From NCBI RefSeq assembly GCF_013122565.1, contig NZ_CP053258.1: DNA of 64,000 nucleotides; one strand, given 5' to 3'. The DNA comes from Escherichia coli (GTDB lineage: Bacteria; Pseudomonadota; Gammaproteobacteria; Enterobacterales; Enterobacteriaceae). Made by a program: the position numbers. Positions 19,883 to 22,800 of this stretch are shown piece after piece. The first letter of the stretch is position 1. Each line of letters begins with the position of its first letter.

Positions 19883-22800
19883 TAAACGATATTCTCGTCT
19901 TCAAATTACTGATATCAGTTGTTCATCATTACGGCATGCGTCATCACATACATTCAACAGGAGGCAGCCCATCATTGAAAACATCATTCAATATATTTAA
20001 TTAAATCAGGACAACTGATAAATCTAATTTAACAACAAAACAGAATGATGAAGTAAAGATATATAACACAATATTTCAGAGATCAACTCAATTATTCTCA
20101 TCTTCAAACTAGCTGGCTCCTACAAAATCACTCAAAGATAGCAGGATACCTGCCCTTTCTTCTAAGGTTAGTTGTTTTTGACACAAATAAATGAAGGAAG
20201 TGTTTCGCCACCAAAAATGAAAGTGTTATTATGTTTACTGACCACGATCCTGTCGCTATCAAAATTAATAACATTGACTACATACCCTGCAAATTCAAAC
20301 GCAGGAACGTTATCACCTGGATGAGCAATAGTTTTCACTTCACTAATATAAAAAGTATTCTTTTTGAAATCCATCACATCAAAGGTTATATCACGGTTAA
20401 CGCGATAGTGGTTGACACCAGAGGTCGATGATTTGGTCGTAACAGAACCAAAAACCCTGATTATACCTACACTATCTGATTGAATATCCATTGATAATGT
20501 TCCAGAAAAGAAATCATCAGGGTTTTCCAGCTTATTAGTCAACAAGGCTCCAACACAATCAATTTTTATGTTTTCATTGATAATTAAAATCGCATAAAAT
20601 AAAAAAGAAGATGGCAAAATAAAAAACACGAGCAACCAAAAATATTTATTATTCATAATAGTAGATACTCTTACACTCTGATAAATTTACTGTATCATTG
20701 ATTTCAAAAAAGCAACGACTTATAAAAACCCTACCTTTACCATCAAATACGAGGCTCTCATCCTGCTGTGTAACATAAAACCCTCCTTTTATACATGGTA
20801 TATACTTTTCTGCTATACTTCTTGAAATTTCCTGCCGCGCAGAGTGTACACTTGGATTTTTACGATTAAATACATAAATTGGACAAGAGTCGATCATTCC
20901 TGTTTTATATATTTTTTCTTGTTTAACTTTATTATCATTCAAAGCATAAAAATAACAATACGAAAAGCTAATTATTAAAACCAAGAAAAAAAGCATGAAA
21001 TGATACTTACCACTTATAAAACGTTTTTTTTGTTTAGTTTCTGTGGTTAGATTTACGATCGATTCTGGAGAATATACTTCCATTTGTAAATCCTCCGACA
21101 ACTTATTTATCTCACTATCAACTTCAACTGGACAAAGTTCTTTAGGAACACTATCGCTAGTTTCAATTAAATCTATTTCAATAATCTCTGGAATAAGAAA
21201 ACCAGATTTTGGAACTGTTACAATAATATCCCCAGGAACGCCAAGTAGTTTAAAGTTCTTTCTAAGCAAAGATACATACTGTGCCAATGTATTGTTAGAG
21301 ATATTATAGCCATATTTATCCCAGACATAATTCAATATTTCATCCCGAGAGATTATTGTACCATGGTACTTTATAAACAACGCTAACAACCTCGCTGCAG
21401 TGGCTGGAAGCAATATTTCATCATGCGTTTCGACATTAGATACAGAATATCTTATCTCATCATACATAATCTGTCCATTGATTATATGGCTCATATTTTT
21501 CTCATATTTATTTATTTTCATTTAGATATTACACAGATAAACAAGAATGCAACAATATCACAACGACCCCATAATGCACGAGACAGTTTAGCTTTTAAAC
21601 ATATAACACATAAAGAAGTATGTCCGCAACTGAGAATAATACAAAAAAATTCCAAAGCCATTATCCCCTCAAAATCGCCAACTTATATATTTTTTAAGTA
21701 TCGCCTTAGTATCGTCCTAGCAAAACCTAAAATTCCTGAGGGGATAGTGTACACCAAATATTGTGTCCACTATCCATGAAATCATTAATCGCAGTGCGTA
21801 AAAAGCCCTTATTTTCCCGTTGAGTTCATAATCAAAATGGTTGTACTCTCGTATCGGCCAGAAACCACCGTAGCGAAACTTACTCGTGAGCATGGGATCA
21901 ACAATAATCTACTGTTCAGGTGATACCAGTACTGCTACAAAGGAAAACTACGCCTCCTTCAGCAATAGAAAACAACGTGGCAGCACAGCTCCCCATAACA
22001 CTTAATGCCGAATAGCTTGTCCCTACAACATTCTCCTGGTCACAACTTGTAGCTGCTGAGGCGCCCAAATCACTCAATATCAGCTGTAAAGCGACATTCC
22101 GGCACCGATCACTCCGGCTAAATGGTTCCGTCAGGGACAAAGATCTAGCAGGTCGCTGGCATCACCGATATGAGAAACGGCTTCAACACTGTTCTGCAGG
22201 TGGATATGTACGCCGTGTTCAACGAGCTGTACCACGATGGGCAGATAACGGAAACAGCCTGCTGGGCTCACGTCGTCGCAAGCTCCACGATGCGCACATT
22301 CGCACTCCGTCTGCGTTGACGGAGGAATCCCTGAAACAGATCGGCGAGTTGTATGCCATTGAGGCGGAAATAAAGGAGGATGCCGACAAAACTAAACCGT
22401 GCAGAACGTTAGCAAAAAGCTAAAGTGCGACTGATATCCCTAGCAAGAAGCTGGCTGAGTAAAAAGATGAAAACGTTATCGCGGCTGGCGAAAGTGTTCA
22501 CGTATTTACTGAATCAGCAGCCGGCGCAGGCTAACAATACTGAAGGTGAAAGATCCGAAGCAAATAACAACATTGCTGATAATGGCCAGTCTAGACCACA
22601 AAAACTAACTATTCTTCAGTTCGGAGCACGGGGAAAGCGATGAGCTCTGCTGTACAGTCTCATCAGGGCGATCAAACTGAACGATATTAATCAACGGCGC
22701 AACCTGAGTTATGTGCTTGACGTAATCGCCGACTATCTTATACACCGGGTCACTAAACTACTCCCCTAGCGCATAGCACTGCCAACTGATTAACATATCT

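Follow-up and report, generated by a model that had tools for sequence, protein, structure and literature searches.

A gene for a membrane-bound transcription regulator that sits on a genomic island beside fimbrial genes raises the question of what it answers to and what it controls. The case considered here lies in a stretch of 64,000 nucleotides from Escherichia coli (RefSeq assembly GCF_013122565.1, contig NZ_CP053258.1), the whole of which we call the window, where an earlier note had marked a regulator gene and an overlapping partner gene as a ToxR/ToxS-like pair on AT-rich DNA next to a fimbrial operon. We interpret the pair as a co-component transmembrane signalling cassette of the ToxR/ToxS–VtrA/VtrC type, from the disulfide-bearing FidL/YqeJ branch, with a divergent adhesin locus as its target; we put the probability of this interpretation at roughly 0.6. 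From gene neighbourhood only, we infer that the pair most likely controls the neighbouring fimbriae, an assignment supported by the conservation of that neighbourhood across diverged lineages and by the co-occurrence of pair and fimbriae in the same E. coli genomes.

Both open reading frames (ORFs) of the pair are present on the minus strand and end exactly where the earlier note had put them, and the DNA is AT-rich as it had said (31.8% GC in the pair, vs 46.5% across the window and 43% in the fimbrial operon). The architecture that it had described, a winged helix, a single transmembrane helix and a periplasmic domain followed by an overlapping gene for a small membrane-anchored protein, is borne out in every part by the sequence (Table 1). 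RefSeq labels the regulator a winged helix-turn-helix domain-containing protein (WP_077627516) and the partner a hypothetical protein. The RefSeq start at 21521 adds nine residues absent from all homologues; in the alignment, Met10 of the long ORF is the start in 11 of 11 homologues, including K-12 YqeI. Because all homologues begin at Met10, the true start, judged from this alignment, is probably the ATG at 21494. Residue numbers of the regulator nevertheless follow the 290-aa numbering throughout. The junction of the two genes, CATGAATAA, is the same in the homologues of Enterobacter hormaechei, Pseudenterobacter and E. cloacae, and the genes overlap by 4 to 20 nt in all other relatives (8 nt in K-12 yqeI/yqeJ). 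The 8-nt overlap and the conserved junction imply that regulator and partner are translationally coupled. A possible weak terminator follows the partner gene; such terminator-like sites are no commoner here than in shuffled sequences, so the hairpin is weak evidence.

When the regulator was compared with the sequences in the PDB, its winged helix matched the DNA-binding domain of Vibrio cholerae ToxR best (E 1.4e-8) and CadC next (E 4.7e-6), with OmpR/PhoB response regulators ranking behind both; in NCBIfam the regulator scores highest against CadC, with 39 bits where 400 are required. The sequence match to ToxR is confined to the winged helix, and none was found over the periplasmic domain among the PDB sequences. 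The transmembrane helix was located by a hydropathy calculation rather than a dedicated topology predictor: Kyte–Doolittle 19-residue windows exceed 1.6 there and nowhere else. For residues 196–290, a model built from 14 sequences (predicted local distance difference test, pLDDT, 84.8) has the order beta-beta-alpha-beta-(alpha)-beta-beta, and structure comparison of this model gives ToxR as the nearest fold. C213, C243, C270 and C283 are invariant across the regulator alignment, YqeI included. In the model C270 and C283 sit in the last two strands of the domain, and a conserved disulfide at the equivalent position has been described for the FidL branch (Kinch et al. 2022, PMC9214523).

The partner begins with one hydrophobic helix (approximately residues 6–26 by hydropathy and 3–26 in the model, nt 20579–20650), followed by about 135 residues. 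Its AlphaFold2 model is confident (pLDDT 91.9; predicted template modelling score 0.80) and consists of an eight-stranded periplasmic barrel (residues 32–160, nt 20177–20563) with a helix at 119–130. Structure comparison places the modelled fold nearest to ToxS and VtrC, and as modelled the barrel is lipocalin-like, as in VtrC. The label ToxR/ToxS-like thus held up, the winged helix being nearest to ToxR by sequence, the regulator's periplasmic domain nearest to ToxR by fold and the partner nearest to ToxS/VtrC by fold. Cys34 lies in the first strand of the barrel (32–41) and Cys158 in the last (154–160); two cysteines so placed form the disulfide described for the FidL branch (PMC9214523). 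More speculatively, helix 119–130 may be the counterpart of the mobile lid over the lipid site in the VtrC and ToxS models.

Relatives of the partner are few. The subfamily occurs in 3 of 5426 complete E. coli genomes and at 3 loci in about 100,000 species-representative genomes, and no partner copy was found on 72,556 plasmids. A word-indexed search of 5.8 billion proteins returned only four partner clusters (E. coli, E. hormaechei and one metagenome), and extending that search with a profile added little. A profile of three close partner sequences, run against 1.84 billion cluster representatives, gave only 40 matches, nearly all of about 160 aa and aligned end to end. The named relatives all belong to the Enterobacterales (Citrobacter, Klebsiella, Pantoea, Obesumbacterium, Enterobacter and Jejubacter), and nearly all are annotated as hypothetical. 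Across 37 aligned partner sequences, YqeJ among them, D115 and C158 never vary and C34, G70, R88, F92 and P154 hardly do, C34 being kept in at least 90% of the sequences. Pfam FidL_like matches 11 of these 37 sequences at E ≤ 0.001 and 20 at E ≤ 0.1. With hhalign, the close partner subfamily aligns to the wider set at 99.9% probability, and K-12 YqeJ joins the wider set at E 5e-10. A 107-aa fragment of the partner protein carries a precomputed PF15941 tag. To judge from these alignments, the pair would form a divergent, unnamed subfamily within the FidL/YqeJ branch, with predicted terminal disulfides.

Five of the features by which Kinch et al. (2022) recognise co-component systems were found. 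The regulator has a ToxR/CadC-type winged helix, a single membrane span and a periplasmic domain of the ToxR fold; the gene downstream overlaps it and encodes an anchored partner that is lipocalin-like as modelled. In the same definition the periplasmic domains pair as a heterodimer and a signal or ligand governs the activity or stability of the regulator, as may hold for the pair here. Among known systems, ToxR/ToxS and VtrA/VtrC supply the best structural matches for all three domains and share the operon order and membrane topology of the pair, but their partners lack detectable sequence similarity to the one described here, and a disulfide pair at the ends of the barrel is peculiar to the FidL branch. 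Orthology to ToxRS was rejected, as the partner has no sequence similarity to ToxS; by its architecture the pair would work like ToxRS. The targets of ToxRS and VtrAC (porins and toxT; vtrB and the type III secretion system 2) and their bile-salt ligand belong to those systems and are not carried over to the pair. Membership of the CadC type of one-component regulator was also considered, given the related winged helix and single transmembrane helix, and was rejected: at 95 residues the periplasmic domain falls short of the CadC type in size, and the regulator gene overlaps that of a partner. CadC has no co-transcribed partner, and its periplasmic region comprises more than one domain (Kinch et al., PMC9214523).

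The regulator plan is the same in MarT/FidL of Salmonella pathogenicity island 3, YqeI/YqeJ of the E. coli ETT2 region and GrvA/FidL of E. coli O157 O-island 47 (OI-47). The four regulator cysteines align in YqeI, the partner is likewise an anchored protein of about 160 aa with cysteines in the first and last strands, the genes overlap, and the DNA is AT-rich and horizontally acquired. Identity between the regulator and YqeI is 30%, over the winged helix only. The pair differs from these systems in its adhesin, which is a chaperone-usher fimbria and not an autotransporter or a type III secretion system, and in the extra genes for an EAL-domain and a LuxR-like protein that its relatives carry. 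Two precedents from the literature concern an adjacent adhesin gene. MarT/FidL sit beside misL and activate it (PMC9214523), and PsaE/PsaF are needed for transcription of the adjacent psaABC chaperone-usher operon of the Yersinia pH 6 antigen (PMC9820224; PMC9214523); PsaE/PsaF and the equivalent Myf regulators are also treated in PMC8407435 and PMC6657601. In the literature that we searched, PsaEF was the only ToxR-like regulator of chaperone-usher fimbriae found described. Compared by description, PsaE/PsaF resemble the pair in being a ToxR-like regulator and a membrane partner next to a chaperone-usher operon. They differ in gene order, psaEF being upstream of psaABC within one locus where the pair and its neighbouring operon diverge, and in that Psa is a single-subunit polyadhesive fibre, whereas the operon in the window has a major subunit and a separate tip adhesin. 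In the scheme of Kinch et al., PsaF does not belong to the FidL cluster of sequence relatives (PMC9214523). The kind of system is thus already known, co-component systems having been described in 2022 and ToxR-like control of chaperone-usher fimbriae being known from PsaEF; the pair is an uncharacterised, highly divergent addition to it. The known picture of co-component signalling is unchanged, and specialists would not be surprised.

The earlier note had placed the fimbrial operon downstream of the pair. It is not: the operon runs on the plus strand, divergent from the pair on the minus strand, with 2.5 kb between them. A related layout recurs in E. hormaechei, Pseudenterobacter timonensis and two metagenomic lineages, whose regulators are 37–42% identical to that of the window. 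In these four lineages the pair faces co-directional genes for an EAL-domain protein (absent at locus L007), a protein of about 200–230 aa, a major subunit, a chaperone, an usher and an adhesin. Their major subunit, chaperone and usher are 61–68% identical to those of the window and their adhesin 28–33% (29% for E. hormaechei and others); a further chaperone gene is present at L007. Over the wider set, pairs at 26–44% identity adjoin chaperone-usher operons at loci L003, L005, L007, L010, L012 and L015, and the lineages with pairs so linked are E. hormaechei, Pseudenterobacter, Serratia and three metagenomic ones. The L010 pair (28% identical) follows a larger chaperone-usher cluster and an EAL gene, and its partner has a weak FidL_like tag. 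At L015, from a Serratia sp. (26%), a four-gene chaperone-usher operon and two LuxR-type genes lie beside the pair.

Elsewhere the adhesin is of another type. In E. cloacae DSM 26481 (L013) the EAL gene and the gene for the protein of about 200 aa are kept, and a giant trimeric-autotransporter-like adhesin stands in place of fimbriae. Citrobacter amalonaticus (L014, JARDVN010000001.1) has two pairs, one adjoining ecpA (308 bits against a cut-off of 200) and the other accompanied by an EAL gene, a LuxR-like/unknown gene and part of a MisL-like autotransporter. Among more distant FidL-like cassettes, one in Citrobacter has a gene for an autotransporter of 2321 aa as its neighbour, and others lie beside invasin-like genes in Klebsiella aerogenes and, in Obesumbacterium (L018), beside a giant invasin-type adhesin gene with an EAL–GerE gene pair about 2–3 kb away. 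An adhesin locus is therefore adjacent in all eight diverged subfamily lineages and in the three outgroup cassettes, although the type of adhesin varies. In E. coli, the 3 genomes out of 5426 that have the pair are also exactly those that have the operon. By rough estimate rather than computed statistic, such adjacency is very unlikely to have arisen by chance.

The same loci bear on a second explanation, in which the direct target is the divergent EAL and LuxR-like genes, and hence cyclic di-GMP signalling, with the adhesin affected indirectly and the pair in the window left as an orphan. EAL and/or LuxR-like genes are the most constant immediate neighbours of the pair: both are present at L003, L005, L012 and L013 and beside one L014 pair, the LuxR-like gene at L007 and the EAL gene at L010. 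The intact EAL protein of relatives (about 259 aa) matches models of cyclic di-GMP phosphodiesterases; the LuxR-like protein (about 195–230 aa) has no Pfam or NCBIfam match, and at its N-terminus it is similar to a GerE/LuxR-type protein of Obesumbacterium (E 2e-7). L013 keeps both genes in a locus that lacks a chaperone-usher operon, and in the window only fragments of them remain, the EAL remnant being 39% identical to the 259-aa EAL protein of E. hormaechei (E 1.4e-21, tblastn) and the LuxR-like remnant 53% identical over residues 159–190 (tblastn). However, the gaps of 135–220 bp between the co-directional EAL, LuxR-like and fimbrial genes of the four lineages are compatible with a single regulated unit, and the Serratia locus has no EAL gene. 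Nor does an orphan fit well with the state of the genes in E. coli, where regulator, partner and all four fimbrial genes are intact; the full-length regulator occurs in 58 contigs and the full-length partner in 27. Intactness of the pair and of the fimbrial genes argues for continued selection, and we regard this second explanation as rather improbable.

A broader proposal, possible but one that we hold tentatively and would not bet on, is that the pair is the surviving half of an undescribed, portable four-gene module for adhesin control. Such a module would consist of the ToxR-like regulator with its FidL-like co-sensor, an EAL phosphodiesterase and a LuxR-like protein, and would have been fitted to different adhesins across the Enterobacterales (Ecp pili, chaperone-usher fimbriae of the gamma type, and autotransporters both trimeric and classical). 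The literature searched gave no description of a four-gene module that includes EAL and LuxR-like genes. If the proposal is true, the module couples a periplasmic lipid-like gut cue to second-messenger turnover and to the expression of surface adhesins. The E. coli version, which has lost the EAL and LuxR-like arm, and the Enterobacter version, which keeps both genes, offer a natural comparison.

Several observations weigh against reading the pair as a FidL-type cassette that controls the adjacent fimbriae. The full-length partner has no match to Pfam FidL_like even at E ≤ 10, no other Pfam match and no NCBIfam match, and pairwise comparison with K-12 YqeJ gave no significant similarity; the 37-sequence partner profile left the ToxS and VtrC chains in the PDB unmatched at E ≤ 10. 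Because direct similarity goes undetected, homology of the partner rests on transitive profiles and predicted fold. Failure of sequence profiles to detect kinship with ToxS and VtrC is expected in this fast-evolving superfamily (PMC9214523). No chaperone-usher operon lies near the L013 pair or one of the L014 pairs. In the window itself the divergent intergenic region measures about 1.75 kb, vs about 420 bp in relatives, and contains the IS66 remnant and other extra DNA; together the remnant, about 1.3 kb of extra DNA and the decayed EAL and LuxR-like genes disrupt the original promoter architecture. With the IS66 fragment and two decayed genes in between, the link of the pair to the operon may be weakened in this window, and its survival depends on the position of the operator. 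The stretch of about 70 bp that leads from what is left of the 195-aa gene to the major subunit gene is retained. Scans of 19.6–24.1 kb for promoter and terminator consensus sequences gave counts no higher than in shuffled sequences, and the ToxR box TNAAA-N5-TNAAA was not enriched (8 matches against 5.4 expected). When the DNA upstream of the regulator was compared with that of five homologous loci, only the close Enterobacter-type relatives aligned. Since the intergenic DNA of the window does not align with that of relatives, no operator can be defined. A repeat search yielded only short AT-rich two-copy families, and Rfam at its gathering threshold found nothing in 19–31 kb.

The failure to find a shared operator, along with the IS66 remnant and the decayed genes that part the pair from the operon, would also suit a genuine ToxR/FidL-type cassette whose targets are elsewhere in the genome, global or cross-island, and whose position beside the fimbriae reflects co-transfer on the island. 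The related GrvA/FidL of E. coli O157 acts in this way on the distant loci ler and gadE/gadW (PMC10877973), which counts against control of the adjacent operon. But the presence of an adhesin locus beside the pair in the eight lineages and the outgroup cassettes is hard to explain by hitch-hiking alone, and the PsaEF and MarT/FidL precedents act on the adjacent adhesin gene. We consider targets elsewhere unlikely.

Could the pair be a non-functional relic? The island that carries it shows decay, with a frameshifted integrase, remnants of IS66, ISL3, IS3 and IS256, a truncated ydeO paralogue and the eroded EAL and LuxR-like genes next to the pair. Yet the ORFs of the pair are full length, like the four fimbrial ORFs, the residues invariant in the family are all kept and the overlap junction is conserved. 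Moreover, the three complete E. coli genomes with the pair all keep it intact. A relic is therefore very improbable.

Returning to control of the adjacent fimbriae by a co-component cassette, the mechanism may be sketched by analogy with VtrA/VtrC, ToxRS, TcpPH and PsaEF. The periplasmic domains of regulator and partner would pair as a heterodimer, and the barrel might bind a small hydrophobic gut cue or respond to pH or redox. The partner would shield the regulator from proteolysis, and the stabilised regulator, still bound to the membrane, would bind nearby AT-rich promoter DNA and activate transcription. Its target, as the conserved neighbourhood suggests, would be the divergent adhesin locus, here the four-gene chaperone-usher operon; the ancestral divergent transcription unit would have opened with the EAL phosphodiesterase and LuxR-like genes, both decayed in the E. 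coli island. The analysis suggests that the chaperone-usher fimbriae of Escherichia, Enterobacter, Pseudenterobacter and Serratia are tied to a second, FidL-type sensor lineage, and suggests that FidL-type cassettes generally travel with adhesin genes. It also offers a testable hypothesis of how cryptic fimbrial operons are switched on and which gut cue the lipocalin-like partner senses.

Table 1. Features of the regulator pair, the fimbrial operon and the DNA between them, in window coordinates (regulator residues in 290-aa numbering).
Feature	Position	Strand	Basis or remark
Terminator-like hairpin, short and GC-rich, possible weak terminator	20141..20153	(-)	15 nt past partner stop; consensus scan
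ToxS/VtrC/FidL-like partner	20168..20656	(-)	162 aa ORF
Regulator gene, longest ORF and RefSeq call	20649..21521	(-)	290 aa
ToxR-like membrane-tethered transcription regulator	20649..21494	(-)	281 aa from conserved start
Gene overlap ATGAATAA	20649..20656	(-)	8 nt; regulator stop inside the partner's first codons
Periplasmic alpha/beta domain of regulator	20652..20939	(-)	residues 195-290, 95-residue domain, four cysteines
Single transmembrane helix of regulator	20940..21005	(-)	residues ~173-194; basic stretch KQKKRFISGK just before
Winged-helix DNA-binding domain of regulator, cytoplasmic	21195..21419	(-)	residues 35-109; Pfam Trans_reg_C, E 1.4e-11
IS66-family transposase remnant, between pair and operon	~22180..22770	(+)	RefSeq of 99.5%-identical E. 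coli locus, BLAST-mapped
EAL-domain gene remnant (cyclic di-GMP phosphodiesterase-type)	23247..23645	(+)	residues 18-157 only
LuxR-like gene remnant	23827..23922	(+)	last ~30 residues of 195-aa gene
Four-gene chaperone-usher fimbrial operon, intact, proposed target	23993..29190	(+)	ORFs; NCBIfam subunit, chaperone and usher matches
Major subunit	23993-24550	(+)	
Chaperone	24619-25329	(+)	
Usher	25354-27957	(+)	
Tip adhesin, 382 aa	28042-29190	(+)	

Some smaller observations concern the DNA around the fimbrial genes. An AT-rich 25-nt direct repeat, AAAATATAAACATATAAACTAAAAA, occurs at 22845-22869 and 22894-22918, in copies that are 84% identical and 49 nt apart; it lies between the IS66 remnant and the EAL fragment and might belong to the ancestral divergent promoter region. 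The EAL fragment shares its 5′ end with a RefSeq "hypothetical" ORF (23067-23381). The EAL and LuxR-like part of the proposed module spans 23067-23922 in the window and, among relatives, L003:8201-9581 and L018:5530-6925; it occurs also at L005, L012, L013 and L014. Just downstream of the adhesin gene, at 29578-30399 (+), is a paralogue of YdeO, of the AraC family (NCBIfam YdeO, 442 bits; cut-off 348). IS66-derived sequence has taken the place of its C-terminus, and RefSeq treats it as an incomplete pseudogene; it could be a second fimbria-linked regulator. The survey of E. coli chaperone-usher types by Wurpel et al. (2013) does not mention the fimbrial locus.

At three of the related loci a gene of the hha family (67 aa, PF05321) follows the fimbrial adhesin gene (L003:2677-2880, L005:2657-2860 and L012:2688-2891). 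Its presence in Enterobacter-type loci hints at silencing of the module by H-NS/Hha; an hha remnant is not detectable in the window. The two L014 pairs, at 10001-10853 and 17345-18486, are 6 kb apart. In this assembly, frameshifts or sequencing errors have left each regulator in two ORFs and the partner gene of the second copy apparently truncated. With a pair, an EAL and a LuxR-like gene and then a second pair, this locus would resemble Salmonella STM0341-STM0345, where two pairs flank an EAL gene next to the stb fimbrial operon and which would be the nearest described analogue; the paper on STM0343 gives no locus context.

The chromosomal island that carries the pair has tRNA-Ser(GGA) (10956-11043) as its insertion site, with ghrA and the csg genes alongside, and the window is 99.3–99.5% identical to E. 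coli PapRG-06-5. From 10956 to 19700 it has a CP4-44-like backbone on the minus strand, with genes for DUF4942, a CbtA/YeeU toxin-antitoxin pair, a YeeS-like JAB protein, an antirestriction protein and DUF932; a YeeP-like GTPase gene occupies 18767-19678, and the regulator pair comes immediately after it. The island's tyrosine recombinase gene at 40995-42434 (compared with L016:1-2690) is partial or carries a frameshift in the reference strain; there it is also interrupted by an IS3 element that the window's strain lacks. OI-47 of E. coli O157 encodes the related ToxR-like GrvA, and a second ToxR-like pair such as grvA was not found in the window despite its OI-47-like far end. That end, 43144-64000, matches an OI-47-like cluster with ycdU, fatty-acid and polyketide synthesis genes and an ABC transporter, and includes a two-partner secretion pair, ShlB/FhaC with a filamentous haemagglutinin, at about 58.1–63.7 kb.

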